DNA from: an uncultured delta proteobacterium
GTDB taxonomy: Bacteria > Desulfobacterota > Binatia > UBA9968
Assembly (NCBI GenBank): GCA_963816145.1
Contig: CAWFJP010000003.1
Location: forward strand, 224,001-288,000
Length of the DNA: 64,000 nucleotides
Direction of reading: 5' to 3'
The notes beneath the pieces are model-generated. The model worked only from the letters and a program-made list of their open reading frames with translations, was not told the DNA's origin and did not search any database. This document shows positions 15,811 through 50,869 of the stretch, piece after piece; the stretch's first letter is position 1, and every line of letters starts with the position of its first letter. The position numbers were made by a program, and so were the translations under genes.

Positions 15811-16107
15811 CACCACAGAGGGCACAGAGCACACAGAGAATATAGTTTGTTCAAACCCTCTGTGAACTCTGTGTGCTCCTTTCAAAATACCTGTGCAGGT
15901 ATGATCTGGGCGACCACATGGCGCGAAGGTTCCGTCATACCGGCGAAAGCCGGTATTCCATCCCCCTCCCTCCCTTGGATGCCCGCCCCGGATCGAGTCC
16001 GGGGCAGGCTCTGCGCCGGAATGACGGATCAATGAACGAACCGGTGGGGGGGGCTGGGCAATTTCATACTCTGTAGACGAGCGTAAGCTCACGAACACTC
16101 TGTGGTG
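15811..16107. repeat. Periodic REP-like palindrome (CACCACAGAG...CTCTGTGGTG) interrupted by MITE copy 1
   Basis: Left arm caccacagagggcacagagcacacagag; right arm ctctgtgaactctgtgtgCT[insert]CTctgtggtg. Confidence 0.8.
15878..16097 (+). mobile_element. Non-autonomous CT-flanked REP-targeting element (MITE), copy 1, 220 bp
   Basis: Ends CCTTTCAAAATAC...TGTAGACGAGCGTAAGCTCACGAACA; CT at 15876-15877 and 16098-16099; homologous to 18753-18945 and 50647-50859. Confidence 0.75.
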
Positions 16108-16128
16108 AAAATCCGATCTTAATCGACG

Positions 16129-16410
16129 TTACTGGCGCTGCTTCAAAACATCCTCGAGCTTCTTACGGTCGTCGTCGAGGATTTTTTCCTGCGATCGTTT
16201 GGTTGGCTCTGTGTTTTTACCGGCTTTCTCCAGCTTGCGAGTGGCGCCCGGCACCTTGTGCTCCTTGTCCGAGTCTTTGGAAAACATCCTGGTGATGTCG
16301 TCCCAATACAGCCAGGTGACGAATGCGAGAAACCAGACAATCAGCGGAACGAAAATATAAATGAGCAGGGTTTTGAGCCAACTGCGTTTGGGTGGTTTTT
16401 TTCGCGCCAT
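16129..16410 (-). CDS. Small single-pass membrane protein
   Basis: Basic N-terminus, hydrophobic LLIYIFVPLIVWFLAFVTWLYW, charged tail. Confidence 0.7.
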   Translation of the reverse strand: MARKKPPKRSWLKTLLIYIFVPLIVWFLAFVTWLYWDDITRMFSKDSDKEHKVPGATRKLEKAGKNTEPTKRSQEKILDDDRKKLEDVLKQRQ

Positions 16411-16521
16411 GTTGAACGTGCCGACGCCGGCCCACACCGTCCGGTGCTGAAAAGCGAGCGGACCTAAGCGCCGCTCGGGTGGAGCACTGACGGTATGAAA
16501 AGGGTGTCCGCGATAACTCGA

Positions 16522-17472
16522 TCAGTACATCGGTTTGTGATCGAAATAGTGCGTTGCATCGATCACCCGAATGGTTTTGGTCTTGGAGCGCATGACCACG
16601 GATTGGGTGGTCGCGCCGCCGGCGAAGAAATGGACGCCGCGCAAATAATCGCCGTCAGTAACGCCGGTGGCGGAGAACATAACATCGCCGGCGGCCAACT
16701 CGTCGATATTGAATTTCTTCTTGATGTCGGTAACCCCCATTTTTTTCGCGCGTTCGATCTCTTCATTGTTGCGCGGCGCCAAGCGCCCCTGGAACTCGCC
16801 GCCGACACAACGCAGCGCCGCCGCCGCCAAGACCCCTTCGGGCGCGCCGCCGATGCCTATCAATAGATCAATGCCGGTTTCCGCCTTAGTGGTGGCGATG
16901 GCCGCGGCGACATCGCCGTCGCCGATCAAGCGAATTCGCGCGCCGGCTTTGCGCACTTCGGCAATGATCGCGTCGTGGCGCGGGCGGGCCAGGATAATCA
17001 CCATCAGATCGTCGACCTTGCAGCGCTTGGCTTCGGCCAAGGCGCGGAGATTTTCGGTCGGCGATTTGTCTAGATCGATGACCCCTTTGCCCGCCGGGCC
17101 GCAGGCGATCTTCGCCATGTAGGTATCGGGGCAGTGCAGGAGATTGCCGCCGTCGGCCATGGCGAGAACCGCTAGTGCATTGGGGCCGCCGGTGGCGCAG
17201 ATGGTCGTGCCTTCTAGGGGATCCAGTGCGATATCAACCTTGGGGCCGCCGGAGCCGACCTTTTCGCCGATGTAGAGCATGGGCGCTTCGTCGCGTTCGC
17301 CCTCGCCGATCACCACCGTGCCGTCGATGGCGAGCGCGTCGAAGGCTTTGCGCATGGCGTCGACCGCCGCTTGGTCCGCCGCCTTCTCATCACCGCAACC
17401 CGTCAGCCTCGCGCAATTAAGCGCCGCCGCTTCGGTCACACGCACTGCTTCGAGAGCTAAATTTCGGTCCAT
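16522..17472 (-). CDS. glpX: Class II fructose-1,6-bisphosphatase
   Basis: VRVTEAAAL, VVIGEGERDEAPMLYIGE, DPLEGT, GDGDV, GGAPEGV, ATGVTDG. Confidence 0.96.
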   Translation of the reverse strand: MDRNLALEAVRVTEAAALNCARLTGCGDEKAADQAAVDAMRKAFDALAIDGTVVIGEGERDEAPMLYIGEKVGSGGPKVDIALDPLEGTTICATGGPNALAVLAMADGGNLLHCPDTYMAKIACGPAGKGVIDLDKSPTENLRALAEAKRCKVDDLMVIILARPRHDAIIAEVRKAGARIRLIGDGDVAAAIATTKAETGIDLLIGIGGAPEGVLAAAALRCVGGEFQGRLAPRNNEEIERAKKMGVTDIKKKFNIDELAAGDVMFSATGVTDGDYLRGVHFFAGGATTQSVVMRSKTKTIRVIDATHYFDHKPMY

Positions 17473-18677
17473 GTCGGTCTCCCTTCGATCAACGATTCCA
17501 TCAGTCGATAAGCCTGTTCCGCAACTACGCCGGTCTTAAGTGCGTCTTTTTCATTGTAACCCAGGGCGCCGTTATCGCGCTCCTCTTGGGGCGAATACAA
17601 CACAAATGGCACCGGTTCGGAAACATGGGTCTTCAGTGCGCAGGCCGTCGGATGGTCGGGCATGAGCAAAATACGATAATCCCGGCGCTGCGCCATACCC
17701 TTCAACACCGTGCCGACAACTTTCTCATCGAAATCTTCCAGCGCCTGGATCTTCGCCTTGACGTCGCCCATGTGGCCGGCCTCGTCGGTAGCCTCGACGT
17801 GGATAAACACCAGATCGTTTTTCTCCAATGAGCGCACGCCGTATTCGCCCTTGCCGATAAAGTTAGTATCGAGAAAGCCGGTGATGCCGGGAACGTCGAT
17901 GCGCTCCAATCCAGCGTAGACACCTAAACCGTGAATGATATCGACGGCCGAAATTACCCCGCCTTTGATGCCGAAGCGCTCGGTCAGCGGTGGCAATTGC
18001 GGCGCCCGCCCCTGGCCCCACAGCCAGATCGTCGTCGCTTGGCGACGTCCTTCGGTTTTGCGCTTTAGGTTTACCGGATGCTGCGCCAGCGCCTTTTGCG
18101 ACGCTGCCATCAATTTGAGCAGGCGGTCTGCGCCCTCACCTTTAGGCATGTAACCGGCGGTCTTTTGATCGGTGATATCATGGGGTGGGGTAGTATCCAT
18201 TTTCTCCAGGCCGTCGCGCCAGACCATCAGGTGGCGGTAACTCACGCCGGGGAAAAATTCGATGCCATCGCCGCCCAGTTCACGGCCCAGGTCACGGATA
18301 ATTTCCGCCGCTTCTTCGGTCGAGATATGGCCGGAAGTAAAATCCTCCATGGTGGCATCCGTGCCGCTGCCGGCGACGGTGACCAGATTACAACGAAAGG
18401 CGATGTCTTTTGGCCCGAGAGCCACGCCCATGCTGGCGGCTTCCAAGGGCGAACGGCCGGTGTGATAGATCGCCGGATCGTAACCCATGATGCTCATGTT
18501 GCCGACATCGCTGCCGGGCGGAAAACCTTTGGGAATGACATGGGCGATGCCGTATACGCCATGTTGCGCCAGCCAGTCCATATTGGGCGTGCGCGCCGCT
18601 TCCAACGGTGTCCGGTTGCCGAGGGACTCGATCGGATAATCGGCCATGCCGTCGCCTTGAAGAATGATATATTTCAT
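17457..18677 (-). CDS. apgM: Cofactor-independent phosphoglycerate mutase (ApgM-type)
   Basis: GDGMAD, TPLEAARTPNMD, PGSDV, TGRSPLEAASMG, HVEATDEAGH, PDHPT; overlaps glpX by 16 nt. Confidence 0.9.
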   Translation of the reverse strand: MKYIILQGDGMADYPIESLGNRTPLEAARTPNMDWLAQHGVYGIAHVIPKGFPPGSDVGNMSIMGYDPAIYHTGRSPLEAASMGVALGPKDIAFRCNLVTVAGSGTDATMEDFTSGHISTEEAAEIIRDLGRELGGDGIEFFPGVSYRHLMVWRDGLEKMDTTPPHDITDQKTAGYMPKGEGADRLLKLMAASQKALAQHPVNLKRKTEGRRQATTIWLWGQGRAPQLPPLTERFGIKGGVISAVDIIHGLGVYAGLERIDVPGITGFLDTNFIGKGEYGVRSLEKNDLVFIHVEATDEAGHMGDVKAKIQALEDFDEKVVGTVLKGMAQRRDYRILLMPDHPTACALKTHVSEPVPFVLYSPQEERDNGALGYNEKDALKTGVVAEQAYRLMESLIEGRPTWTEI

Positions 18678-18742
18678 CGATCCAATCCGCCTTGATTTTT
18701 CTGGTACAAATGCTCGTTTCGGTTTTCCCCTGAGGAAGGTTT

Positions 18743-19024
18743 CACCACAGAGTGTTCATGAGCTTACGCTCGTCTACAGAGTATGAAATTGCCCGGCATC
18801 CATCCACAGGTACTTTCATTGATCCGTCATGCCGGCGGAGGCCGGCATCCATGGAAGGGAGGGGATGGATACCGGCTTTCGCCGGTATGACGGAACCTCC
18901 GCGCTGTCGTCTCCCGGTTCATACCTGTACATGTATTTTCGAAGGAGGCACAGAGTTCGCAGAGATCAGAGTAAATATTTTGATTAAACATTCTTTCCTC
19001 TGCGTCCTCAGCGCCTCTGCGGTG
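18743..19024. repeat. Periodic REP-like palindrome interrupted by MITE copy 2
   Basis: caccacagAG[insert]AGgcacagagttcgcagag ... ctctgcgtcctcagcgcctctgcggtg. Confidence 0.8.
18753..18945 (-). mobile_element. Non-autonomous CT-flanked REP-targeting element (MITE), copy 2, 193 bp
   Basis: Minus-strand ends CCTTCGAAAATAC...TGTAGACGAGCGTAAGCTCATGAACA; AG (CT on minus) at 18751-18752 and 18946-18947. Confidence 0.75.
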
Positions 19025-19071
19025 CAATCTCCGGATAGCGAATTCACAGTAAAGCCCCAATACCCCGATGC

Positions 19072-20466
19072 CTAGTTGGAACTCCAGATCGGAAACCACA
19101 CCGGCTCAACCAGGATATAGTCACGATTACGGATAGAAGCCAGCGCCCGGCGCATCTGCCGCAGACTCGTGCGCTCAAGCGTCATGACGAAGGGCAAAAT
19201 TTCTCCCTGTTTCTGTTTTAGCCGGTAACTTTGCATCAAACTGTGCAGTTCCTCTTCGACATGGCGCAGTTGCCAAATCTCGGAAATATTCACACCGATC
19301 CGGCCGAAGGTCTTGCCGATATCGCCGACAATACCGGCGCGGTCTTTGACCACGAAGCGCACGTAAAACGGCACATCGATCTCGTCTTCACGTTGCAGCT
19401 TAAGCGTGCCCGGCGCGATCAAACTCGGCGCGCCGCTGAACTTGCGCGCGCCGCGTGCCAGCTCACAAACATCGCCGAGCACAGCCACAGCCGTGGGACC
19501 GCCGCCGGCACCCGGTCCGACCAGAACATAATCGCAATCTCGTCCGCCACGCCCGCCGCCGCTGCTCTTGCCAGCAAAACAAATCGCGTTGGTCGCGCCA
19601 TCGACGCTCGCGAGAAAGTTATCGCCCGAGACCAACGCCGGTGAGACAAAGACTTGCACCGCCGAACCGCGCCGGCGCGCCACCGCCAATTGTTTGATGG
19701 TACTGGCGCCGATGCGTTGGGCATAACGAAAATCGACCGCTTGGATCTCTTCGATGCCCTTGCGCCAAATCTTGCCCGGTTCGATCTGCAAACCGAAGGC
19801 GACCATGCTGAGCAGGAGCAGCTTGGCTTCGGCGTCGCTGCCGTCGACGTCGGAGGCAGGGTTAGTCTCCGCGTAGCCTTTTTGCTGCGCTTCCCGCAGC
19901 GCTTCGGCGTAGGGTTTGCCGCTCTTCTCCATCTGCGACAGGATGTAATTGCAAGTGCCGTTGACGATGCCGAAGATCGCTTCGGGCTGCTCGACGGCGA
20001 AGCTCTCGCTGAGCGAGCGGATCACTGGAATGCCGCCACCGACACAGGCTTCGAAGCGCAATTGTTGGCCGGAACTCTTCACCGCCGCCCAAATCTCCTT
20101 GCCGTAGCGCGCCAACACTGCCTTATCGGAAGTCACCACGGACTTGCCATTGCGCAAAGCGCGCAGTATGTAGTCGCGAAACTGCGGCAAATGGGTCGCC
20201 GATTGAAAGCCCAAGGCTTCAATCACGATGTCGACGCCCGGATGATCGAGTACTTCTTCAGGCCGGTTGGTGAACAGGGCCTCGCGCTGGCCGAACCATT
20301 TTTTGTCTTTGGGATTGCGCGTGTAGATTTTGCGGATCTCAAGCTCAACATCGATTCCGACATATCCCTTGAGATCATGAAACAAAATGTCTTGAATCGC
20401 CTCGCCGACCACTCCTGAGCCGAGCAGTCCGACACCGACTTTGCGCCGCGAGTTAACCGTTGCCAT
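19072..20466 (-). CDS. hom: Homoserine dehydrogenase with C-terminal ACT domain
   Basis: GLLGSGVVG, VVTSDKA, FEACVGGGIPVI, GIVNGTCNYIL, GYAETNP, GPGAGGGPTA. Confidence 0.93.
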   Translation of the reverse strand: MATVNSRRKVGVGLLGSGVVGEAIQDILFHDLKGYVGIDVELEIRKIYTRNPKDKKWFGQREALFTNRPEEVLDHPGVDIVIEALGFQSATHLPQFRDYILRALRNGKSVVTSDKAVLARYGKEIWAAVKSSGQQLRFEACVGGGIPVIRSLSESFAVEQPEAIFGIVNGTCNYILSQMEKSGKPYAEALREAQQKGYAETNPASDVDGSDAEAKLLLLSMVAFGLQIEPGKIWRKGIEEIQAVDFRYAQRIGASTIKQLAVARRRGSAVQVFVSPALVSGDNFLASVDGATNAICFAGKSSGGGRGGRDCDYVLVGPGAGGGPTAVAVLGDVCELARGARKFSGAPSLIAPGTLKLQREDEIDVPFYVRFVVKDRAGIVGDIGKTFGRIGVNISEIWQLRHVEEELHSLMQSYRLKQKQGEILPFVMTLERTSLRQMRRALASIRNRDYILVEPVWFPIWSSN

Positions 20467-20528
20467 TTTAGTAGATTATGGATTCTTCAGGTTCTAGTGT
20501 AGATGTTCTGTCATATTCAAGGTGCATA

Positions 20529-20610
20529 TTTCACCACGAAGGCACGAAGGACACGAAGGTTTCTGAAAATTTATCTTTTCTAACTTCTCTTCGTGTCCTT
20601 CGTGGTGAAA
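20529..20610. repeat. Uninterrupted periodic REP-like palindrome (CACGAAG type)
   Basis: tttcaccacgaaggcacgaaggacacgaag ... cttcgtgtccttcgtggtgaaa. Confidence 0.85.
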
Positions 20611-20646
20611 GGATCTTGACTTATTATTTAGAAATCACCACCACGC

Positions 20647-21825
20647 TTAGTCGAGCAGTTTGCCGAGTGACTTCTTGATCTTGCGCACGGCCTGCTTGGT
20701 GCGGTGCTCGTTCTCGATCAAGGCGAAACGGACATGGTCATCGCCATACTGGCCAAAGCCGATGCCCGGCGATACCGCGACTTGCGCTTCCTGAAGCAAG
20801 TATTTGCAAAACTCGACCGAGCCCATCTTCTTTGCCGGCTCGGGGATTTCCGCCCAGACGAACATGGTGCCTTTGGGCCGGGGAATATGCCAACCGGCAC
20901 GGTCGAGGCCGTCGAGCAGCGAGTCGCGGCGCTTCTGATACATCGAGCAAATTTCTTCGACGCATTCCTGTGGCCCATCCAGCGCGGCAATCGCGGCGAT
21001 CTGGATCGGTTGAAAGATGCCGTAATCCAAATAGCTCTTGATCCGCGCCAAGGCTTGGACGATCTCCTTATTGCCGACGCAGAAGCCGACGCGCCAACCC
21101 GGCATGTTGTAACTCTTGGATAAGGAAAAAAACTCCACACCGACATCCTTGGCCCCCGCCGCCTGGAGAAAGCTCGGTGCCTGGTAGCCGTCGAAAGTAA
21201 GATCCGCATAGGCGAGATCGTGGACAACGAGGAAGTTATGCTCCTTTGCCGCTTTGACCACTTTCTCGAAAAAATCGAGCTCGACCACCTGCGTGGTCGG
21301 ATTATGCGGAAAGCTGATGATCAGCATTTTGGGTTTGGGCCAAGTTTGGCGGATCGCCTCGTCGAGATTGCCGAAAAATTCCTCACTGGTGGTCAGTGGA
21401 ATGCAGCGCAGATCGCCGCCGGCTAAGACCACTGCATACTGATGAATCGGATAGGTCGGGCTGGGACAGAGCACGACGTCGCCAGGATCGATGGTCGCCC
21501 AGGCCAGGTGCGACAACCCTTCTTTCGCGCCGATGGTGACGATCGCCTCGCTGTCTGGGTCGATGGTCACACCGTAGCGCCGCTGGTACCACTTGGCGAT
21601 GGCGACCCGGAGTTTATAAATACCGCGGGATACCGAATAGCGGTGGTTTGCGGGTTTGGATGCGGCCTCGATCAACTTTGCCACCACATGGGGCGGTGTG
21701 GGCAAATCCGGGTTGCCCATGCCGAAGTCGACGATATCTTCGCCTCGATGCCGCGCCTCCATCTTCATGCCATCGATGATGCTGAAGACATAGGGCGGCA
21801 GCCGCTTAATCCGCTGAAATTCCAC
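20647..21825 (-). CDS. alaC: PLP-dependent class I aminotransferase, AlaC-like
   Basis: [62 protein letters not shown]. Confidence 0.85.
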
Positions 21826-21934
21826 GCGCCGTCACCTCTGCTATATTTAGAAATTCAATGAGTTTTCCTATTTATAAGGCATCGCTGCCACAGGTGCAAA
21901 TCAGGACCCGCCAATGCAAAAGGAATTGCCAACC

Positions 21935-24130: not shown

Positions 24131-24165
24131 GTATCAAACCAGACGGATTGTCTTCATTTCTCATA

Positions 24166-24270
24166 AACCCCGCCTCTTGAGGCGGGCACAACTAACTGGA
24201 GTTTCCAAAGGGGGCGAGCATCCCCTTTGCACTATTGAAATTGGCGGCGGGGTTAAATCCCCGCCCGCGA
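24166..24270. repeat. Cluster of three short GC hairpins, possible IS200/IS605-end relics
   Basis: cccgcctcttgaggcggg; caaagggggcgagcatccccctttg; gcggggttaaatccccgc. Confidence 0.45.
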
Positions 24271-24371
24271 AGTGGTTTCGTTTAATGACGGCGGTCTCGA
24301 CGTGCAAAGAATCCCGGATGATCCAAATGCACGGCTATTTTCCAGATCACTCGCTAAGCACCGAATGACCG

Positions 24372-27300: not shown

Positions 27301-27611
27301 TCAGCCAAATCAATGGCCAGGTTGAGCGCCGTCTGTCCACCGAGGGTCGGCAAGATCACGTCGGGCCGCTCCTTGGCGATGATTTTCTCGACGATGTCGG
27401 TGGTGATCGGTTCTATATAGGTCCGGTCGGCGAAACCGGGGTCGGTCATGATGGTGGCCGGATTGGAGTTGACCAGGATAACCCGGTAACCCTCTTCCTT
27501 GAGCGCCTTCAAAGCTTGGGTGCCGGAGTAATCGAACTCGCAGGCCTGGCCGATGATAATCGGCCCGGCGCCGATGAGTAAAACGGATTGGATGTCGGTG
27601 CGTTTGGGCAT
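24372..27611 (-). CDS. carB: Carbamoyl-phosphate synthase large subunit
   Basis: [59 protein letters not shown] domain. Confidence 0.98.
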
Positions 27612-27616
27612 GGATG

Positions 27617-28780: not shown

Positions 28781-28784
28781 GAAA

Positions 28785-30911: not shown

Positions 30912-30943
30912 ATATTCCGGGTTTCGGTTGCAGTTGAGCCGAA

Positions 30944-34770: not shown

Positions 34771-35820
34771 AGGGTCAAATCTTTACTTAAGGCGTAAGCT
34801 CTCGTCAATCTCCGTCATAGTCATACCCATCCGTTTATCGAGGTCTGCCTTCTCCCGAATCCGCTTGCGCTCCCGGCTCACCGTCGTGTAGTCCAATCCG
34901 CCAAGCTCTGCGCCAATCCCCGATTGGCTGAGCTGCCCATGCCGATAAAGCATCTCCATCGCCACCGCTCGTGCGTCCCGATTCCCAATCCGCTTTGCCC
35001 TGATCTCGGTCTCCTTCACTCCCAAGCGCCGGCACACCTCTTTGATGATGTCCGCCGCGCTCTTGGCCGCAAACTCCCTGACCGACGGCTGTTCGCGGGA
35101 GACTCCCCCTTCGCCAACCCTGTCTTTGATCCTTTCGACAAACTTCTCTTGCCCCAATACCACTTGCCCGCTGACGTTTTTCCACGGCGTGTCGTATCCG
35201 CGCTCGATCCCGTCGGCGACAAACTCTGCGTACTTCTTTCGACTCCCACCGACCCGCCCGAGCACCATTTCGTAGCGCACCCACGGCTGCTTGCTAGCCG
35301 CTTTGACGTATCCCGGTAGGCTGCTCCATCGATAGCGCTCCAAATATCGAATCTGCTCTCTGACGTTCTTGCCATGATAGCTCTTTAACCGCACCGGATT
35401 TAGGTGAACGTAGCGGCTGAGCTCTAACAGATAGCTGTCCTGGTCAACCAGGATGGCTTTGAATCGCCCTTGGTACAGATGCCCGACACGGCGATGGCGG
35501 CGGTTAAATGCGGCGGTGTAGCTGATATTAAAATGGCGCATGAACTCGGAGAGATTGGCCTTGGGCGTGGCCACCAGCAAATGAAAGTGGTTGGCCATGA
35601 GCACATAGGCGTGAAGCTCGACTTGGTAGGTGGCGAGCGAGCCTCGCAGCTTCTCCAAGAATACTGTTCGATCCCGGTCGTCGCGGTAGATCGCCCGCCG
35701 GTCGTTGCCCCGGCAGGTGACGTGGTAAAAACCGCCGGGAATCAGGATTCTTAGGGGTCGGGTCATGGGCTTCTACTAGCATCGGGTTAGGGCGGAAAGC
35801 AAGAGTAAAGATTTGACCCT
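34771..35820 (-). mobile_element. RAYT-type element bounded by perfect 17-bp inverted repeats
   Basis: AGGGTCAAATCTTTACT (34771-34787) and AGTAAAGATTTGACCCT (35804-35820) enclose the transposase gene. Confidence 0.7.
34783..35766 (-). CDS. REP-associated tyrosine transposase (Y1 HUH, RAYT-like) with C-terminal DnaA domain IV-like HTH
   Basis: YHVTCRGN, AYVLMANHFHLL (HUH), GHLYQGRFKA, YVHLNPVR; C-terminal IGAELGGLDYTTVSR. Confidence 0.88.
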   Translation of the reverse strand: MTRPLRILIPGGFYHVTCRGNDRRAIYRDDRDRTVFLEKLRGSLATYQVELHAYVLMANHFHLLVATPKANLSEFMRHFNISYTAAFNRRHRRVGHLYQGRFKAILVDQDSYLLELSRYVHLNPVRLKSYHGKNVREQIRYLERYRWSSLPGYVKAASKQPWVRYEMVLGRVGGSRKKYAEFVADGIERGYDTPWKNVSGQVVLGQEKFVERIKDRVGEGGVSREQPSVREFAAKSAADIIKEVCRRLGVKETEIRAKRIGNRDARAVAMEMLYRHGQLSQSGIGAELGGLDYTTVSRERKRIREKADLDKRMGMTMTEIDESLRLK

Positions 35821-40548: not shown

Positions 40549-40714
40549 TGCAGCTCCCCTAAAAGCATAATTGATACTACCAAGAACGGTGCACCGGTAA
40601 GACCGCCATTTTATTCGCTCATCTGTATAAGTCAACACATCATCTAACAGTCGACCGGCAAGTTCTCGTCATCGGTTAGTGAATTAACGGTTCTTATGAT
40701 TCATCAAACCGTTA

Positions 40715-41207
40715 CTACAGCAGTTTGATTATTTCGGAGTCCAAACTCTCGCGATGAATCTTCAGCCGTGCAATAGTCACCGGCAATTTGAATCTCCGCG
40801 GCCCGGCGCTGCCGGGATTGACGAACAGGACGTCGTCACGCGTCACGACGCTCGGTTTGTGCGAGTGACCGCTGATGACGGCGCGAATTCCCGCTACGTT
40901 GGGTTCGCCGTCAAGTTCGTGGACGTTGTGGATCACGTGAATCTTAGTGCCATTAATCTGGAGATTGAGTATGTCCGGCAGCTTTTGCGCCCACGGTCCA
41001 CGATCATTGTTACCGCGAATGGCGTAGACCGGCGCGATCGCGTCTTAACGATTGCAGCACTTCAACTTTGCCGATATCGCCGCCATGAATGATCAGCTCG
41101 ACGCCCTTGAGCGCCACCAGGGCTTCGGGCCGCATCAGTCCGTGGGTGTCGGAGATCACACCGATGATCCCTTTCTTGAGCTCGATCGATTTCTTGCGAA
41201 CTAACAT
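40715..41207 (-). pseudogene. YfcE-like metallophosphoesterase with a frameshift near 41042 (pseudogene or assembly error)
   Basis: ISDTHG...HGGDIG in one frame; AIAPVYAIRGNND...SGHSH...NPGSAGPRRF in the next; one extra base at TTA AGA c GCG ATC. Confidence 0.75.
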
Positions 41208-41291
41208 GACCAGGCTGATGTAGCTTGATTCCGGGTTCGGCGCAATTCTATAGTGGTCCTGGGTTAAGGGGAGTGATCGAAATCCGGAAGA

Positions 41292-41406
41292 TTTCCCGCA
41301 AAGGCGCTAAGGCGCAAAGTTGACGGCATGGATCCAAGACAGATTTTTCCCTTCGGTCGAAATGACATTAGTCTTTAACTTAGCGTCTTTGCGCCTTGGC
41401 GGGAGA
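41292..41406. repeat. Periodic REP-like palindrome (CGCAAAG type) with an ATGAC-type half-REP in the loop
   Basis: ttcccgcaaaggcgctaaggcgcaaag ... cttagcgtctttgcgccttggcgggaga. Confidence 0.78.
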
Positions 41407-41489
41407 ATAATCCAATTCCCAAAGTTCCCGCTTGCGCGCAAAATGCCAATAAATCAAAAAACTATAGCCCAAGACTCACCGGAGGTCTT

Positions 41490-41993
41490 ATGTTTCCTCA
41501 CTTACAATCCTTCAACCTACAAAAATGGATCGACGACAACCGCGGCGATTGGGGGCAGCGGCGGGTGATTTGGCAGGACTCCGATTTCATCGCCTTCGTC
41601 ACGCGCGGCCCGAACCGGCGCAAGGATTATCACATCAATCCCGGGGACGAGATTTTTTACCAGCTTGAAGGCGAGCTCAACCTGCACTACTTGAAGGATG
41701 ACAAGCATGAGCTGGCGGTGCTCAAGTCGGGGGATGTTTTTCTCATGCCGAAAAACACGCCGCACTCGCCGCGCCGTGCCGATGGTTCGTGGACCTATGT
41801 GGTGGAGAAAACCCGTTCGAAAGACGAAACCGACCGCTTCATTTGGCCCTGTGAAAAGTGCGGCACCAACCTTTACGCCACCGACGTGCGCTTCGATGAT
41901 CCCGGCGATGCGGTCAACAAAGCCACCGCGGCGCTCAAAGCCGATCCAAAACTGGCGACCTGCAAAAAATGCGGCGCGGTGCTGGATGTTTGA
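41490..41993 (+). CDS. nbaC: 3-hydroxyanthranilate 3,4-dioxygenase-like cupin
   Basis: FNLQKWID, GPNRRKDYHIN..DEIFYQLEG, PHSPRR, rubredoxin-like CEKC...CKKC. Confidence 0.8.
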   Translation: MFPHLQSFNLQKWIDDNRGDWGQRRVIWQDSDFIAFVTRGPNRRKDYHINPGDEIFYQLEGELNLHYLKDDKHELAVLKSGDVFLMPKNTPHSPRRADGSWTYVVEKTRSKDETDRFIWPCEKCGTNLYATDVRFDDPGDAVNKATAALKADPKLATCKKCGAVLDV

Positions 41994-42029
41994 AATAGCG
42001 AAGATAACCGTGAGGAGTTTTCTGATTCC

Positions 42030-42110
42030 GTCATTGCGGTGAAAACCGGAATCCATCCAGTTCGACGGACTAAGCAGCCTGGATTGGCGCTAAAAACATG
42101 CGGGAATGAC
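42030..42110. repeat. GTCAT...ATGAC-type REP between convergent genes
   Basis: gtcattgcggtgaaaaccggaatcca ... ctggattggcgctaaaaacatgcgggaatgac. Confidence 0.7.
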
Positions 42111-42162
42111 GAGCGAATTGAAATGCAGGTGATTCTTTAGATTAGCTAATATTTTACTTGAG

Positions 42163-44457: not shown

Positions 44458-44474
44458 GATTCAGTCGGAAAATG

Positions 44475-44506
44475 AAAAAGGCCACGGTGAGATTGTCACC
44501 GTGGCC
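44475..44506 (-). terminator. Rho-independent terminator after the small Zn-ribbon gene
   Basis: Minus strand GGCCACGGTGA-CAATC-TCACCGTGGCC-TTTTT. Confidence 0.8.
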
Positions 44507-44517
44507 CAGAACTGAAA

Positions 44518-44664
44518 TTATTTGCGGATTTTGGGGCTGTCTTTTTCGGGGAAGTATTTGTCGCAGAACGGACAATGAAAATTCATTCCAGAACCCAGCA
44601 TATGCGGGTTAACGACAAAGATTTTTTTACAGCTTGGACAAGTGATTTCAACGGCCTGACCCAT
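44518..44664 (-). CDS. Small Zn-ribbon protein, 48 aa (MGQAVEITCPSCKKIFVVNPHMLGSGMNFHCPFCDKYFPEKDSPKIRK)
   Basis: Below ORF-track cutoff; GAGG RBS, two CPxC motifs, terminator downstream. Confidence 0.75.
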   Translation of the reverse strand: MGQAVEITCPSCKKIFVVNPHMLGSGMNFHCPFCDKYFPEKDSPKIRK

Positions 44665-44681
44665 GGTTTACCTCTCTATCT

Positions 44682-44768
44682 ATTTTGGATTGGCGATTTT
44701 GGATTTTGGATTGCCGGAATCTCCCTCCTTCATCCTCCCCCGCAAGCGGGGGAGGAAAGAGGTGGGGG
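44682..44768. repeat. Heptamer repeat (ATTTTGG) followed by a CCCTC-type hairpin REP
   Basis: attttgg attggcg attttgg attttgg attgccg; cctcccccgc-aa-gcgggggagg. Confidence 0.7.
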
Positions 44769-44806
44769 CTGCTTTGTGCGCTTTGGATTAACTCTCTCCG
44801 ATTCCG

Positions 44807-46252
44807 TTAGGCCCAGTAGGTCGTGCGGTCCATCGGGATATGCTGCAACACCTCACCGGGCACATAGTCTTCCAACTTGATGCGCGCCATCGCTTCGTCG
44901 GGGCATTTCGACACTGGCGAGAACGGCCGGTCGGTCGGCTTGGTCGCATCGACGATCATTCCCGAGGTCTTGATCTCGTCGCGCAGCGACGGATCCAAGA
45001 AATTGCCGCGGAATAAAGGCTTCAAGATATTGACCTGGAGATGGGGTTGCACTCGGGTCGCGATCGCCCAGAGAATGTCGGTCGGATTGAAGACGTCGAT
45101 ATCCTCATCGAAGACGAAGACATTCTTGGTGTGATCGAAGGTCAATGCGGCGGCGGCGGCGCGCGCCGGATCGCCTTCCGACAACTTTTTCATCGAAATG
45201 AAAACATTGTAATGGGCGTGGCGGCCCTGCTTGCAGACGGCGGTGACGCCCGGAACCGCCTCACGGCAGCGGCGCAGATACGCGCCTTCGCGCGGCAGAT
45301 CCATCCACGGTTTGTCGCCTTCCGGCGTGATCACCGACTGATACATGGCGCCGTTGCGATAATTGATCGCCTTCACTTCGTAATGCACGCAAGTGGTGTA
45401 GCGCTGCGGTCCGAGATAGCCGGGCGCTTCGCCGAAGGGTCCTTCGACGACGCGGCCGCCGGGTTTGAGCACGCCTTCGATGACCACCTCGGCGTCGGCC
45501 GGAATCAATAAGTCGTCGCCAAAGGTTTCCGACGCGACCAAGCGCAGCGGTTCGCCCATGTAGCCGCCGATCACATCGTACTCGCTGACTTCAAACGGGC
45601 CGCTGTAGCAGGCGCCCATGTGGAACGCCGGGTGATGGCCCAAGACCGTCGCCACCGGCATTTCCATGTTGTTGTCTTCGTAGTCTTTGAAGATCTTCCA
45701 CAGATGGCGCGGCGAAGCATAGAGCGCGGTGGAGTTCTTCGATTTTACCTCCATGCGGTGGTAGGAAAGATTGTAAATGCCCGACTTGCGATCCTTGGTG
45801 ATGGTCGAGAGTACGATGTAGGGCCCGCCGTCCATCTCATGATGACGCATGATCGGGATCTGGTAGAGGTCGACTTTATCGCCGACCATGGTGTTTTGCT
45901 TGATCGGCGCGTCCTTCTTGCTGATGATCGTCGGCGGCACCCGATGCTCTTCCATTTCCAAGCATTTCTCCGCCATCTCCGGGCGAGTGGCCGTGCGCGG
46001 CATGCCCAAGGCGATCTGGGTCTTACCCTGGGAAATCTCGCAGTTCATGGTTAATTTGATTGGTCCGACTTTTCCGTTCAAATTGAGCGGGTTGTCGAAT
46101 ATGATGATCGGAAACTTCTTCTGGGCGCCGAGATGCTTGATAATCGCAGTTACATCGTAGTTCGCCGGATTGACTTCCTTGGTGATGTGAATCACCTCTC
46201 CCGGCAATTGCCGTTCGCAATCGGCAATGAAAGTTCGTAAATCCTTCGCCAT
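44807..46252 (-). CDS. UbiD family (prFMN-dependent) decarboxylase
   Basis: DLRTFI, DGGPYI, YNLSYHRM, PADAEVVIEG, EGPFGEAPGY, DEDIDVFN..DILWAIATRVQ, DATKP. Confidence 0.9.
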   Translation of the reverse strand: MAKDLRTFIADCERQLPGEVIHITKEVNPANYDVTAIIKHLGAQKKFPIIIFDNPLNLNGKVGPIKLTMNCEISQGKTQIALGMPRTATRPEMAEKCLEMEEHRVPPTIISKKDAPIKQNTMVGDKVDLYQIPIMRHHEMDGGPYIVLSTITKDRKSGIYNLSYHRMEVKSKNSTALYASPRHLWKIFKDYEDNNMEMPVATVLGHHPAFHMGACYSGPFEVSEYDVIGGYMGEPLRLVASETFGDDLLIPADAEVVIEGVLKPGGRVVEGPFGEAPGYLGPQRYTTCVHYEVKAINYRNGAMYQSVITPEGDKPWMDLPREGAYLRRCREAVPGVTAVCKQGRHAHYNVFISMKKLSEGDPARAAAAALTFDHTKNVFVFDEDIDVFNPTDILWAIATRVQPHLQVNILKPLFRGNFLDPSLRDEIKTSGMIVDATKPTDRPFSPVSKCPDEAMARIKLEDYVPGEVLQHIPMDRTTYWA

Positions 46253-46648
46253 GCAGGCCTCCTAGCTAAGTTATGAAATATTTTATGCAAAAAGATTTAT
46301 CGGATGGCCCCAGCATTGTCAAATCAAGTAGCCGAAGCACTAAGCGGTTAACCTGCGATTTCTCAGCGATTATTTGCAAATAGCGCGCAATCGGCTGCGG
46401 CTGCTTTGAGGCTGTGAAATTGAAAAGCTTCTTCGCTCCGCTGGCGGACGCGGTAAGCGCCGCAGCAGTAATGACCGGCTCTTTTTGCCATTTCCGCGAA
46501 AGCGAAATTCAAAACTTGGTTTGGGACTTCCCGCCAATCTCGCCTGGATACCCGCGCGCTCGGATATGACGGAATTTTTTGTCGCCGAAGTCTGCCCTGG
46601 GCATGGCGGTCTGCCAAATGGATTTATCGCAACTACAGGCCTGTGCAG

Positions 46649-47485
46649 CTAGTCGAACACCACCGTGCGATTGCCGTGCAGAAATACTCGCTCATCGAGT
46701 ATCAGCCGCACAGCTCGCGCCAGAGCGATTTTTTCCGCGTCCCGGCCCGCCTGGACCATCGCGGCAGCGGTGTAGGTGTGATTCACCGGGATGACGTTTT
46801 GCGCGATGATCGGCCCAGTGTCGAGATCGTCGGTGACGATGTGAGCGGTGGCGCCGATGATTTTAACGCCGCGCTCGTAGGCTTGGTGGTAGGGTTTGGC
46901 GCCAATGAACGCCGGCAGGAACGAATGGTGGATGTTGATCACCCGGTTACGATAACGGGCGACGAACGCTGGCGTGAGGATGCGCATGTACTTCGCCAGC
47001 ACCAGGTACTCGGGCGCGTAGGAGTCGATCACTTCCATCACCCGATTCTCATGTTCGGCGCGCTCGAGATCCTTATGACTCACCCAGTGAAACGGGATGC
47101 CGAACGGTTTGACCAAAGAGCTCAAGGTCTCGTGGTTGGCGATCACGGCCTTGATCTGTGCCGGCAACTCGCCGGAGTAATGGCGAATCAGCAGATCACC
47201 CAAGCAGTGTGCTTCGGTAGTCGCCAGGATGACGATCGGCTGGCGCTCCGCTTCGACCAGTTTGACCACCGACTCGGTCGGCAGGATCTGTTGGAGATAA
47301 GAAACCACCCGGTCCGGTTGGGTCGGTCCCTCGAACGCCGTGCGCATAAAAAAGTGCTTGGCTTCGAGGTCGACAAACTCATGGTTGCTGAGAATATTGT
47401 AGCCGGCGTTGAACAACACGCCGGTGATCTTGTGTACCAAGCCCGGCTCATCGCGGCAGTCAATGCGTAATATATGTGGTGGCAC
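46649..47485 (-). CDS. purU: Formyltetrahydrofolate deformylase
   Basis: ACT domain, HCLGDLL, LVLAKYMRIL, INIHHSFLPAFIGAKPYHQAYERGVKIIGATAH, NRTVVF. Confidence 0.95.
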   Translation of the reverse strand: MPPHILRIDCRDEPGLVHKITGVLFNAGYNILSNHEFVDLEAKHFFMRTAFEGPTQPDRVVSYLQQILPTESVVKLVEAERQPIVILATTEAHCLGDLLIRHYSGELPAQIKAVIANHETLSSLVKPFGIPFHWVSHKDLERAEHENRVMEVIDSYAPEYLVLAKYMRILTPAFVARYRNRVINIHHSFLPAFIGAKPYHQAYERGVKIIGATAHIVTDDLDTGPIIAQNVIPVNHTYTAAAMVQAGRDAEKIALARAVRLILDERVFLHGNRTVVFD

Positions 47486-47615
47486 GTCAACGACTCCTCA
47501 GAGGGATTATTATCCAATCAGTATTGCATGCTCTCGCATACAGATAAACTGATCCCATGCCGAGCACTTAAGCTAAAGAACGTTCAGCCCATTGTTGAAG
47601 CCGGTTTCGCGCCTG

Positions 47616-48443
47616 TCATTGTTTCACATACCGATGGGTGAAGCGGTCGCTCTCGCCGATGGCCTGGTATTTGGCGCGATCCTTGTCGCCCAAGCGAAAG
47701 CTTGGCGGCAAGGTCCATACGCCGTCGGGATAATCCTTGGTGTCTTTAGGGTTATTGTTGACCTGCGAAGTTCCGGCGAGCTTGAAACCAGCTTTTTCCA
47801 TCTGCTTGATCGCCACATCCTCGCGGACATAGCCGAATTTCATCTGCGCCTCCTGGGATAAGTCGGTGCGCCCGCGATGATCGACGACACCCAACACTCC
47901 GCCCGGTTTGAGCGCTTTGTGAAAAGCGCGCAGGGCGCCGTCGATCTCATTGCGCTCGATCCAATTGTGCAGATTGCGAAAGGTCAGGACGAAATCAGCG
48001 CTGCCCGCCGGCGCGATCTCATGGCGGTCGGCGTTGAATTTGGTGACTTTCACCTTGGCGAAAACCTCCGGGTCTTCCTTGAGTCGGCCTAGAAACTTCT
48101 GATGATCGGCAAGATACTGCGGCGCCGCCAACTCGTCACGATTGGCGGCGATGTAAACGCCCCGCGTGTTCAAATACGGCGCGAGAATTTCCAGGTAGTA
48201 ACCCCTGCTGCCCGGCAGGATCTCCACCACCGTGCTGTTGTCTCTGACGCCGAAAAATGCCAGCGTTTCGATTGGATGGCGGTGGATATCGCGCACGACG
48301 TTGGCATGGGTACGATAAGGTGCCTTTAACAATTGTGCGAGCGTGCTTTGATCGTCAGCCCATGAGGTTGCTAACGGTATCGACGTCAGCAGCATGAAAG
48401 CGACCAACGTCGCAATTCGACGACGTTTTAACTCCAGGTCCAT
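47616..48443 (-). CDS. Predicted exported SAM-dependent methyltransferase (COG4798-like)
   Basis: Signal peptide ending SWA; RDIHRHPIETLAFFG, VVEILPG..GYY, LTFRNLHNW, LKPGGVLGVVDHR, GVWTLPP, IGESDR. Confidence 0.82.
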   Translation of the reverse strand: MDLELKRRRIATLVAFMLLTSIPLATSWADDQSTLAQLLKAPYRTHANVVRDIHRHPIETLAFFGVRDNSTVVEILPGSRGYYLEILAPYLNTRGVYIAANRDELAAPQYLADHQKFLGRLKEDPEVFAKVKVTKFNADRHEIAPAGSADFVLTFRNLHNWIERNEIDGALRAFHKALKPGGVLGVVDHRGRTDLSQEAQMKFGYVREDVAIKQMEKAGFKLAGTSQVNNNPKDTKDYPDGVWTLPPSFRLGDKDRAKYQAIGESDRFTHRYVKQ

Positions 48444-48496
48444 GTCATTCTCCGTTGGGCAAAAAGGTTCCGCACGTTTCATCGAAGCCGTAACCA

Positions 48497-49453
48497 TCAT
48501 CGCTTTCCAGCGGCGATTTCATCGAGCAAGGAAAAATCATAAACCTGCTCCATCTTGGGCGGTTCCTTAAGACCCATGTCGCGCTGGGTCAACTCGAAGT
48601 CGAGTTTATTGGCGGCGGCCGTCGGTTTGCCGTCGAGGGCCCAGGATCGCACGACATTGTCGTAAACCCAGGAAGATTCCTCCGCGGTCAATGCGAACTG
48701 CTTCATGTAGACCGGAATTACCTTGTCTTTCTGGGTCGCTGTGATGCGCAGCCCTTCCAATGCCGCCTGGACCGTCGAGCGCATGACATCGCGACGGCTT
48801 TGCAAACTGGCGATGGCAGTCCCCAATCCGCCCGAGGACAAATCGATATCGTCGGAGGCGCGCGCCAAAACGCGAAATCCCTGGCGCATAAGCCTTGCCG
48901 CCTCGACGGCGGTAAGAACCGCCGCTGGAACCGTACCGCTCAATAGCGCCGGCGACCGCGCGCTACCGATGTTGAGAATTTTGTAGTCATCGGGCCGCAA
49001 TCCTTTGCGGCGCAAGAGTTCAATCAACACGATGTTAGCCGACGCCTGAGCCGTGTAGCCGCCAAAAGTCTTGCCGCGAAGCTGCTCGACGCTGGTGAAT
49101 TCTTTCGCGGCGACGACGCATAAGTCCGAGCGATTGGCCGAAACCATCACGACTCGAACCGGTACGCCGCGCAGCGCCGCCCGCCCGGTGGTCCCCGCGG
49201 CGGTGTAAAAATCAAGATCGCCGGTCAGCAACGCGGCGAGCGCCGCCCGCGGCTCGAGCACGAGGATCTGCGGTTCAAATCCCAGGCTCTCGAATATTCC
49301 CAGGCTGCGCGCCATATAAATTGGCGTCGAGCTTACCGAATGGCTTGGCAGAGCGATGCGTAAAGGCCGGAGCTTCTTTTGTTGCGCGCCGGCCGGAGAA
49401 GTATTGAGCATCATCACCGCGACCAGCGCCAGCCAACCCATACGAAATAACAT
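48497..49453 (-). CDS. NMT1/SsuA-type ABC substrate-binding protein
   Basis: Signal peptide (AGA-Q), AALLTGDLDF, EQLRGKT. Confidence 0.82.
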   Translation of the reverse strand: MLFRMGWLALVAVMMLNTSPAGAQQKKLRPLRIALPSHSVSSTPIYMARSLGIFESLGFEPQILVLEPRAALAALLTGDLDFYTAAGTTGRAALRGVPVRVVMVSANRSDLCVVAAKEFTSVEQLRGKTFGGYTAQASANIVLIELLRRKGLRPDDYKILNIGSARSPALLSGTVPAAVLTAVEAARLMRQGFRVLARASDDIDLSSGGLGTAIASLQSRRDVMRSTVQAALEGLRITATQKDKVIPVYMKQFALTAEESSWVYDNVVRSWALDGKPTAAANKLDFELTQRDMGLKEPPKMEQVYDFSLLDEIAAGKR

Positions 49454-49522
49454 CGGTAAAAGCCCCCTCTTTACCTGTCCGAAAGCTGATTTCTGACCAC
49501 TGACTACGGATCGCTATTTCCT

Positions 49523-50485
49523 CTACCGTTTAGCCAATTCATCCAACATCGAGAAGTCGTAGGTCTGCTCGGCTTTCGGCAATTCCTTGAGTCCCATGTC
49601 GCGCTGCGAGAGCTCGGCATCGAGCTTAACGGCCCCCGGCGTCGGCCGGCCGTCTAGCGCCCATCCGGGGCGGATCGCATCATAGACGTAGCTGGCTTCG
49701 TCTTGACTGAGCGCCAACTGCTTCATCAGGACCGGTACGGTCTTATCTTTTTGATTGACGATCACGCGAATGGCATCGAGCACCGCCTGGACTCCTGGCC
49801 GCAAGAATTCACGTCGACTCTGCATGCTGCCGAGCGACATACCCAAGCCGCTTTGCGGCAGCTCCAGATCATCGCTTGCCCTTCCCAAGACATGAAATCC
49901 CGCTTTGACCATGCGCACGGTCTCGACGCTATTGAGCACCGCGACCTGCACCGCGCCACCACTCAATGCCGCAGCGCGAGCGGTACCGGCGTTGACGACT
50001 TTGTAGTCATCAAGTTTGAAGCCGCGCCGCCGCATCATTTCATGGAGGACGACATTGACCGTGCCCTGCGGCGTATAGGCGCCGATCACCCGGCCACGCA
50101 GCTGCTCGAAACTGGTGATATCCTTGGTCGCGACCAAGGCGAAATCGGGGCGGTTGAGGGCAACCAGCCCCACGCGAACCGGCAAACCGCGCAGCGCCGC
50201 CCGCGCAGTAGAACCGATGGCGGTATAAAAATCCAACTCGCCGGCGAGCAACGCGGCCAATCCGGCCCGTGGCTCCAAAACCAATACCCGAGCGTCGAAG
50301 CCGTAGTTTTCGAATATGCCCAACTGTTTGGCGACATAGATCGCCGTCATGGTCACCGAATTGTTAGCTAGGGCGATGTGCAGCGGCCTGAGCTTCGGTT
50401 TTTGCTGAGCGATCGCCGAACTGGAAAGCACAAACAAAGATAGTCCAAGTGTCATCAATCCAGCGATCGGGCTGATCCGAAACAT
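49523..50485 (-). CDS. NMT1/SsuA-type ABC substrate-binding protein (tandem paralog)
   Basis: Signal peptide (AIA-Q); shares VLEPRA, WALDG.PT and QRDMGLKE with the neighbour; GGAGG RBS before ATG 50485. Confidence 0.82.
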   Translation of the reverse strand: MFRISPIAGLMTLGLSLFVLSSSAIAQQKPKLRPLHIALANNSVTMTAIYVAKQLGIFENYGFDARVLVLEPRAGLAALLAGELDFYTAIGSTARAALRGLPVRVGLVALNRPDFALVATKDITSFEQLRGRVIGAYTPQGTVNVVLHEMMRRRGFKLDDYKVVNAGTARAAALSGGAVQVAVLNSVETVRMVKAGFHVLGRASDDLELPQSGLGMSLGSMQSRREFLRPGVQAVLDAIRVIVNQKDKTVPVLMKQLALSQDEASYVYDAIRPGWALDGRPTPGAVKLDAELSQRDMGLKELPKAEQTYDFSMLDELAKR

Positions 50486-50576
50486 TCCGCCTCCTTCAAT
50501 CCTGTCCCTCATACCCGCGTCGACGCGATACTGTCAAGATAAGAGTTGGCCAACCAGTATTAATGGCAATATTTTT

Positions 50577-50869
50577 CACCACCAAGTCACGAAGAGCACG
50601 AAGTTCGGAGAAATAATTGCTCGAACCCTTCGTGTCCTTCGTGCCTCCTTAGAAAATAACTTTCGGGGGATGATCTCCACCCAAATGGAAGAGGCCACCC
50701 GAGGTTCCGTCATACCCGCGGAAGCGGGTATCCAGGCTAATTCGGCGGTGAATCACCCTGGATTCCCGCCTGCGCGGGAATGACGATTCGAACAGAGTAA
50801 CAGGTGGAGGGGAATCCATCTGTTTTCAAAGTCTGTAGACGAGCGCAAGCTCATAAACGCTTTGTGGTG
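50577..50869. repeat. Periodic REP-like palindrome (CACGAAG type) interrupted by MITE copy 3
   Basis: caccaccaagtcacgaagagcacgaag ... cttcgtgtccttcgtgcCT[insert]CTttgtggtg. Confidence 0.8.
50647..50859 (+). mobile_element. Non-autonomous CT-flanked REP-targeting element (MITE), copy 3, 213 bp
   Basis: Ends CCTTAGAAAATA...TGTAGACGAGCGCAAGCTCATAAACG; CT at 50645-50646 and 50860-50861. Confidence 0.72.

Follow-up and report, generated by a model that had tools for sequence, protein, structure and literature searches.

Short repeats inside the palindromes of a Binatia genome as probable MITE-like derivatives of an IS110-family, bridge-RNA-type insertion sequence

In this work, we examined three short repeats that lie within repetitive extragenic palindromes (REPs) of a 64,000-nucleotide window of DNA from an uncultured delta proteobacterium (Binatia), namely C3:224001-288000 of a 7.82-Mb assembly of 31 contigs (genome G000). 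We conclude that these repeats, hereafter mini-elements, are very probably non-autonomous derivatives of an IS110-family insertion sequence (IS) of the bridge-RNA type, mobilized in trans by the recombinase of that IS. They share their ends, their target and their 2-bp core with a full-length IS from the same genus, their insertion sites are empty in orthologous REPs of related genomes, guide segments of the IS match both their flank and their end, and these guides covary across the IS clade, homologues from other phyla included. A reading made earlier from the sequence alone had proposed a non-autonomous, IS110-derived family that targets REPs, and the same-genus parent, with the same termini, target and core, bears this proposal out: the copies have the termini of the IS and no transposase, occupy unlinked sites of the parental target type, and are polymorphic for presence and absence. 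Because terminal inverted repeats are absent, "MITE-like" (after miniature inverted-repeat transposable elements) is the apt term for them.

The three copies lie where the sequence-only reading had placed them, with the end motifs that it had described and with CT abutting both ends of each copy (Table 1). On the strand used in that reading, a copy follows a REP arm and its CT, begins with CCTTnSAAAATA, ends with TGTAGACGAGCGYAAGCTCAYRAACR, and is followed by CT-(T/C)(C/T)GTGGTGAA; if the element is removed together with one CT, the periodic REP arm is intact again at each of the three sites, and two further REPs of the window are unoccupied and intact, again as claimed. The orientation needs refinement, since the mini-element as first written runs opposite to the direction of the recombinase gene. 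In copy 1, the first ∼40 nucleotides (nt) of the IS are found in reverse complement at positions 16058-16097, and its last ∼12 nt at positions 15878-15890. Copy 2 is 96% identical to copies at C3:195277-195469 and C2:40498-40689, and the closest relative of copy 3, at C15:36919-37131, is 91.5% identical.

The window copies belong to a large family. An iterated nhmmer search of the genome gave 474 matches, including 56 full-length copies of 178-220 bp spread over 22 of the 31 contigs. CT is present on the left of 47 of the 56, on the right of 54, and on both sides of 47. The prediction that hits to the end motifs would sit at CT-NNGTGGTG holds for 53 of the 56 copies when one mismatch from CT[TC][CT]GTGG is allowed, with the exact 10-mer CT[TC][CT]GTGGTG following 29 copies; for a comparison with chance, CTTCGTGGTG occurs 404 times on both strands of 7.8 Mb. 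The left flank is less uniform, a REP unit plus 0-3 nt plus CT (at most one mismatch) being found in 36 of the 56. The specificity of the mini-elements resides mainly in the flank on the GTGGTG side, the other flank often being non-REP. The left and right flanks of a copy agree in REP type (CTCTGTG or CTTCGTG) and must therefore be target sequence, not part of the element. Unoccupied arms with CTTCGTG number 299 in the genome, those with CTCTGTG 15. The copies are diverged (median pairwise identity of 73%, median nearest-neighbor identity of 89%), and they divide into subfamilies. Only eight end-motif matches lie outside the 56 copies, five of them in truncated or variant copies and three by chance. 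We also noted two copies, C14:233210-233404 and C22:4069-4263, that do not differ from each other, even across the 45 nt that flank them at either end; this pair is probably assembly redundancy, C22 being a 10.5-kb contig in a genome listed at 6.7% contamination.

An end-motif search of the window's own genome found no longer element with the same ends; in genomes of the same genus such an element does exist, and it carries a gene with PF01548 and PF02371 domains, as the sequence-only reading had anticipated. Among 30 PF01548-matching loci from 31 genus genomes, all scanned with the mini-element profile, three gave a match, which falls at the last ∼38 positions of the model. These parent elements are ∼1.5 kb long (1,535 bp for the copy in genome G009). 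Read in the direction of the gene, they start behind a flank ..(T)TCACCACGA-AG with the recombinase-proximal end TGATTCATGATCTTACGCTCGCCCACAGAAGATGAAAATGG.., continue with a ∼245-nt 5' untranslated region (5'UTR) and a 421-aa protein, and close with the far end ..CCAAATTTTC(G/T)AAGG, behind which the flank resumes as AG-GNCACGAAG... The protein matches PF01548 (1.3e-32, 113 bits) and PF02371 (2.7e-18, 66.6 bits), both above cut-off, and hence has the DEDD (RuvC-like) and Transposase_20 domains by which IS110 members are recognized (e.g., loci L059 and L086). In reverse complement, the right end of the mini-element corresponds to the first 40 nt of the IS at 85-94% identity, and its left end CCTTnGAAAAT to the last ∼12 nt; IS copies carry CGAAGG as well as CTAAGG far ends. 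As the sequence-only reading had stated, the mini-elements lack terminal inverted repeats, and their asymmetric ends mirror those of the parent family (TGATTCATGA.. and ..TTTTCGAAGG), which lacks such repeats too.

Parent and mini-element also share their site. At IS loci with both junctions, AG stands on both sides in 10 of 10, the AG at the far end being mostly followed by REP units, and CCACGAAG directly precedes the element at 11 of 13 close IS loci. Flank plus core is the reverse complement of CT-TCGTGG, the core CT reading AG in gene orientation. A search for homologues of the recombinase returned 79 loci, of which the 11 closest (76-100% identity) come from metagenome-assembled genomes of Candidatus Binatia or "delta proteobacterium," two of the 11 being labelled as other phyla. 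Rfam searched at E<=1 gave no match on three IS loci. At L087:2778-2830, an IS far end, AG and a mini-element proximal end stand directly in series, and the Dehalococcoidia loci L095 and L098 hold tandem IS copies in the genome; these head-to-tail arrangements are chromosomal copies of the circle-junction sequence.

The sequence-only reading had further predicted that the non-coding end of such an IS would carry guides for the REP target and for the donor junction, and two segments of the 5'UTR do so. In the first, GAGCCCG is followed by (C/A)CACGAAG and UG, that is, by the flank, the core and the first 2 nt of the element; in the second, GCACG is followed by CGAAGGAG, the far end plus the core. 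In one copy the first match extends over 12 nt, a length that none of 2,000 shuffles reached, and the second over 8 nt, reached by 80 of 2,000. In a Dehalococcoidia homologue with 57% identity, the two corresponding positions spell the flank (GUUCGGAAUAU) and the far end (GUAGCAAU) of that homologue itself. For a test across the clade, we started from the 79 loci and skipped 23 with short upstream sequence, 11 with identical 5'UTRs and 4 without an end motif, leaving 41 for analysis. In 32 of these 41 non-identical 5'UTRs, the locus's own flank/end junction is matched exactly over at least 8 nt, by 23 distinct strings, and a C(C/T)CG anchor stands directly before the match in 29 of the 32 (counted by eye). 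A far-end match of at least 8 nt is present in 8 of 18 testable loci, in all eight right behind a T-run in the stretch that follows the gene (ATTTT/ATTTTC in seven, TTTTT in an Anoxybacillus locus). The core dinucleotide agrees between the two segments in 14 of 14 rows (AG in nine, AA in five; 11 lineages; by eye). Homologues from Enterococcus have a far-end guide match of 8-10 nt and a flank match of only 6-8 nt, often reached by shuffles. RNAalifold, applied to the 14-row alignment, placed the first segment on the 3' side of an internal loop with an inner hairpin. The 4-bp helix that closes this loop shows compensatory changes (AU in seven/GC in four, UA in nine/CG in four); over closing helix and inner hairpin, five of nine pairs show compensatory changes, and the second loop was not recovered by folding.

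The mini-elements fit the same guides. Flank (6 nt) plus core agrees with (C/A)CACGAAG exactly in 32 copies, with one mismatch in 13, with two in 10 and with three or more in 1; far end (6 nt) plus core agrees with CGAAGGAG exactly in 6 copies, with one mismatch in 26, two in 19 and three or more in 5. Seven of the 10 two-mismatch flanks read CCACAGAG, which differs from the guide by one G-T wobble and one true mismatch. In 52 of the 56 copies the element opens with TG. A long guide for one flank, as against weak pairing for the other, explains why the former is nearly invariant and the latter loose (53 versus 36 of 56). By analogy with the scheme worked out for IS621, the 3'-side guide with its two donor-matching nt likely corresponds to the right-target guide plus handshake, and the CT strand likely to the "top" strand, which would put the recombinase gene on the opposite strand. 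Apart from these matches, the subterminal segment that immediately precedes the conserved ATGAAAAT of the proximal end recurs, in the same sense, on the 5' strand of the second RNA loop, where a conserved (A)TTGTCGC follows it. Such same-sense subterminal repeats are exact over at least 8 nt in 8 of 40 UTRs (reverse-complement repeats of at least 8 nt in 2 of 40), differ between lineages (e.g., L095, L106, L117, L121, L137, L146 and L159) and are only approximate in the Binatia IS; they may be related to the ∼40 nt that all mini-elements keep.

From this evidence we infer how the mini-elements would move. They retain only the ends of the parent, namely ∼40 nt of the recombinase-proximal end (TGT(C/T)CATGAGCTTACGCTCGTCTACAGAGTATGAAATTG) and ∼12 nt of the far end (..ATTTTC(T/G)AAGG), with unrelated filler, including a palindromic module, in between. 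The parent's recombinase and its 5'UTR RNA, supplied in trans, would excise the mini-element as a circle, and the resulting end-to-end junction (..CATGRACA-CT-CCTT..) would be recombined with the CT in the outermost unit of a REP arm (..CTTCGTGNC-CT-TCGTGGTGAA). The site would be chosen mainly by the 8-nt RNA guide (C/A)CACGAAG through its match to the GTGGTG-side flank and the core, and the second guide, CGAAGGAG, would match the CCTT end and the core.

That the short form has moved is seen from empty sites. Orthologous REPs with a single CT, as expected from the sequence-only reading, exist in same-genus genomes for all three window sites: for site 1 in G021:C39 (..ctctgtgatctctgtgtgCTctgtggtgaa), for site 2 in G022:C185 and G021:C39, and for site 3 in G002:C814 (..ccttcgtgcCTtcgtatggtg) and likewise in G021:C91. 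In G019, the intergenic region of site 1 has a variant with a different interior in the other REP arm, which is an independent insertion. Genome G009, which has the IS, provides a size series: of 17 end-motif loci taken from it, 6 hold 86-88-bp elements that consist of ∼45 nt of the proximal end and ∼40 nt of the far end only, 8 hold elements of 159-242 bp with a palindromic insert, and in 3 only the proximal end was seen. The element is immediately preceded by ..ACGAA(G/C) at all 17 loci, in the form CCACGAAG at 15 of them, and the flanks are recognizable as REP ends in all but three. A path from the IS to a bare two-end element, and from this to a two-end element with filler, is thus plausible.

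Near-identical window DNA occurs in wetland and soil metagenomes (20 DNA runs from 18 studies, no RNA run being listed). Contigs of four runs bridge both junctions of copy 1; at copy 2, contigs show a single 195-nt skip with 21 nt on one side only, which is unusable within a repeat. The REPs themselves vary. At 20584-20588, within the unoccupied REP, the number of units differs among metagenome contigs, one run (X4) having an additional 9-nt unit CTTCGTGTC and another (X9) lacking 5 nt. The REP at window positions 50575-50871 belongs to the CACGAAG type in this genome as in G002, and to the CACAGAG type in G021:C91:4800-5160 (L176), both arms having changed together; at a given locus, REPs seem to undergo replacement or conversion in their entirety. 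Finally, L194 (G009:C470:750-1500) contains 28 nt of the proximal end standing alone and fused to the remainder of the REP at an internal, target-like ..CCACAG/AG, which may be a deletion by recombination at a pseudo-target inside the proximal end.

The interior of the mini-elements had been described as divergent, which is correct in part only: a ∼95-bp palindromic module of two inverted hairpin units, with variants, is common to the copies. This module makes up the middle of the mini-element model and also occurs alone; 418 of the 474 profile matches cover only this middle, on both strands, and those outside the 56 copies merge into 179 loci. Variants with the same ends and a different interior exist at C26:8757 in this genome and in G019. 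When a consensus structure was sought for the 56 copies, on either strand, it was detected in the palindromic module only, and Rfam at gathering thresholds gave no match in the window. The claim that the copies have no open reading frame (ORF) also holds in part. There is no conserved frame, all six frames being represented among the longest open stretches and the lengths modulo 3 being distributed 25/18/13; yet each copy is stop-free over 52-72 codons in some frame. Guide-like segments inside the mini-element (a REP-unit-like GGCACGAGG and G-rich CCAC stretches) follow subfamilies and are inconsistent, and we do not claim them as guides. The same palindromic module is found inside a second repeat family of ∼260 bp, which has imperfect terminal inverted repeats (TTAATGTCCCTTTCGGGGATGGTTGAAATCCCTCGCC ... 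GCCGAGGGTCATTCAG) and, at no more than three mismatches, 107 left and 137 right ends in the genome (examples are C5:114847-115033, C14:46979-47163 and C4:141534-141695). Among the 179 module loci outside the copies, 36 have both ends of this second family and 28 have one. In the window, the loci 13685-13845, 41989-42118 and 46479-46604 contain the palindromic core common to both families.

The statement that no recombinase is encoded in the window can be extended, in that the cognate recombinase is missing from the whole genome assembly. A blastn comparison of the whole IS with the genome matched its first 41 nt only, and a 5'UTR profile gave 51 matches in the genome, 50 over the first ∼45 positions and one with E=0.83, so that no bridge RNA was found there; the mini-elements carry no bridge RNA of their own. 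The end motif is present in 27 of the 31 genus genomes, with 51 occurrences here, 55 in G019, 49 in G022 and 20 in G009; among the 30 other genomes, 18 have 4-55, 8 have 1-3 and 4 have none, and the reversed pattern, used as a control, occurs in no genome. Since neither cognate recombinase nor bridge RNA was found and the copies have diverged by at least 4%, the mini-elements of this genome are most likely stranded copies of past activity. The absence of the recombinase is only suggestive, given that most of these are fragmented metagenome assemblies and that IS copies often fail to assemble.

Several observations weigh against our interpretation. No identical copies exist at different loci, the best pair reaching 96.4%, and in ∼8 copies the flank next to the CCTT end is not a REP. 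A tblastn search of the genome with the cognate recombinase found only a gene on contig C13 with 32% identity, whose non-coding flanks share at most 7 nt with the element junctions on either strand, and the cognate gene was found in only 3 of the 31 genus genomes (one of the three flagged unpublished). The mini-element end is 1 nt shorter than the IS ends found (TGTYCATGA versus TGATTCATGA), and the exact parent variant is therefore unseen. The two short guides expected on the 5' side of the loops were not identified with confidence, consensus folding recovered part of the RNA only, and the contigs of the four metagenome runs contain no usable empty-site or circle junction.

Among other explanations, one is a structured small-RNA gene that rides on IS ends, like ssr9 in MITEPpu9, and whose interior is kept for an RNA function such as regulation of the recombinase or the bridge RNA. 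Such a passenger has a precedent in an IS110-family MITE (PMC12288879), internal blocks beyond the ends are conserved in at least 75-90% of copies, and the hairpins include G-T wobbles, possible on just one of the two strands, as well as several GNRA loops (by eye). Against this stand the lack of any Rfam family, a consensus structure confined to the palindromic module, which works on both strands, the presence of this module at 179 other loci and in another repeat family, the exchange of interiors between same-end variants, and the 86-bp forms without any interior; we therefore regard a small-RNA gene as improbable. The resemblance of the interior to a REP doublet, together with seven Y1_Tnp matches in the genome, could also suggest that a Y1 transposase of the IS200/RAYT type acts on the module or on the REP hairpins, the similarity to IS110 ends being secondary. 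One such gene, IS200-like/RAYT-like, lies in the window (34783-35766, reverse strand, 327 aa), and neither repeat family comes closer than 1.5 kb to this gene or to its two paralogues. Indeed, all six Y1 genes tested (three RAYT-like, three IS200-like) have surroundings of 1.5 kb free of either repeat, apart from one coincidental copy; the exception, a copy 1.4 kb from an IS200-like gene on C29, had been considered as an IS605-type element and was set aside as coincidence, as a luciferase-like monooxygenase gene stands between. Moreover, the two end hairpins are unlike each other, and the 86-bp forms lack the module yet occupy the same target. IS200/IS605-type elements are not known to produce 2-bp duplications at a fixed site together with ends identical to those of an IS110 element. 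We consider the involvement of a Y1 transposase extremely improbable.

Hardly any weight can be given either to the idea that each copy is a full-length IS internally deleted in place, the short form never having been mobile. A simple internal deletion would be expected to yield the 86-bp forms; yet the interior common to the 56 copies has no homology to that of the IS, the copies fall into subfamilies, the same deletion plus filler arising 56 times independently is not credible, and the empty orthologous sites show that the short form was gained. Just as remote is the chance that the resident IS110-family element on C13 is the mobilizing partner in this genome. Its gene is the only one here with both PF01548 and PF02371, but the protein is 32% identical to the cognate recombinase, the ends of the mini-element are absent from its surroundings, and no junction match of 8 nt or more exists there, for which reasons we rejected it. 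This gene (G000:C13:10645-12174, reverse strand; L042) abuts the preceding ORF and lacks a long 5'UTR; should it have a guide RNA, this may be located on the downstream side.

Compared with published systems, the parent falls within known ground. A bridge RNA contains two loops, one for the target and one for the donor; both carry 5' and 3' guides that include the core, a 2-nt "handshake" comes after the 3' guides, and for IS621 a 22-bp donor suffices (PMC11208160, PMC11208158). Our parent resembles IS621 and other IS110 bridge-RNA elements in its DEDD/RuvC-like and Tnp domains, the lack of terminal inverted repeats, the flanking 2-bp core and the REP target, and resembles the IS621 system further in the non-coding RNA upstream of the gene, the core-containing guides and the two handshake-like nt after the target guide; the core is CT, as in IS621, when read on the strand of the sequence-only reading. 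The protein is probably distant from that of IS621. Two further differences are that the long guides (6 nt plus core), on the 3' side of the loop, spell the recombinase-proximal flank, with the CT strand apparently antisense to the gene, and that the window holds only a derivative without recombinase.

The closest counterpart of the mini-elements is MITEPpu9, an ssr9 module bounded by ISPpu9-like ends, with eight copies in Pseudomonas putida KT2440, five of them attached to an IS; it carries the gene for an abundant small RNA (sRNA), and minicircles of the ssr9 module alone have been detected (PMC12288879). Like the mini-elements, it is short, has IS110-family-like ends, lies in REPs and has been proposed to use an IS recombinase in trans (PMC12288879). 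Unlike it, our family has 56 free-standing copies in a genome without the IS, a size series starting at 86 bp, and a palindromic filler instead of a known sRNA. In the literature that we searched in full text, the supplements of the bridge-RNA papers being outside its scope, PMC12288879 was the only description found of a non-autonomous IS110-family derivative; the words "MITE," "non-autonomous" and "miniature" do not occur in the text of the preprint 10.64898/2026.08.14.744561. ISPpu10, another IS110-family element, inserts into one conserved palindromic intergenic repeat and is reported to be "structure-gated," a stem-loop of the target DNA being needed besides RNA pairing (10.64898/2026.03.19.712850); in our family, by contrast, ∼8 copies with a non-REP flank on the other side argue that the full palindrome is not strictly required. 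The interior module, with its two inverted hairpin units arranged as a REP doublet and its 179 further loci, resembles the REPIN/RAYT system (Bertels and Rainey), from which it differs in that it flanks no Y1 transposase gene and is also found inside a second repeat family with terminal inverted repeats. In sum, the mechanism is of the known IS110 bridge-recombinase kind, of which the mini-elements are a natural example and not a new mechanism; what is new is that an uncultured lineage harbors a high-copy family which lacks recombinase and bridge RNA and for which the parent is clear and the logic of the guides can be read.

Table 1. Mini-element copies, core dinucleotides and REPs of the window (positions are those of the window)
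Feature	Position	Strand	Remarks
Mini-element copy 1, 220 bp	15878..16097	-	Strand is that of the parent IS read from the recombinase-proximal end
Core dinucleotide CT, left, copy 1	15876..15877	+	Single CT in the empty orthologous REP of G021
Core dinucleotide CT, right, copy 1	16098..16099	+	
Host REP of copy 1, CACAGAG/CTCTGTG type	15811..16109	.	Insertion splits the right arm; intact orthologue in G021:C39
Palindromic interior module, copy 1	15932..16027	.	Two inverted hairpin units
Mini-element copy 2, 193 bp	18753..18945	+	
Core dinucleotide, copy 2	18751..18752	-	AG on the + strand, CT on the - strand
Second core dinucleotide, copy 2	18946..18947	-	
Host REP of copy 2	18741..19033	.	Empty orthologous REPs in G022:C185 and G021:C39
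Mini-element copy 3, 213 bp	50647..50859	-	Subfamily with another variant of the palindromic module
Core CT, left, copy 3	50645..50646	+	
Core CT, right, copy 3	50860..50861	+	
Host REP of copy 3, CACGAAG/CTTCGTG type	50575..50871	.	Empty orthologous REPs in G002:C814 and G021:C91
Unoccupied REP with target ...CTTCGTGTC-CT-TCGTGGTGAA	20529..20610	.	One of 299 such arms in the genome
Unoccupied REP	63621..63708	.	

We also speculate, tentatively and against the odds as we see them, that the mini-elements are a lineage-wide parasite of the RNA-guided recombinase which outlives it, staying on in dozens of copies where the recombinase is missing or no more than a visitor, and which spreads other palindromic modules. 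All variants, whatever their interior, keep the ∼40 nt of the proximal end even though IS621 needs a donor of only 22 bp, which suggests a further requirement in cis in this clade; a candidate is the subterminal segment that recurs, in the same sense and covarying, in the second loop of the bridge RNA, and this would be a third contact between RNA and donor, so far undescribed. More generally, bridge recombinases are being developed as genome-writing tools, and natural passengers, if mobilized in trans as we think, show such use at scale, with 56 copies here and ∼50 in each of two relatives, while the smallest form, at 86-88 bp, points to the portions of the ends that are required in nature. 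The copies can be read as a fossil record of the insertion choices of one guide RNA, with a strict flank, a loose flank and a second REP type tolerated. In the IS clade, both long guides can be read behind two conserved anchors, which makes target prediction easy for many uncultured lineages, and the family accounts for a set of repeats that would otherwise give spurious small ORFs in annotation.

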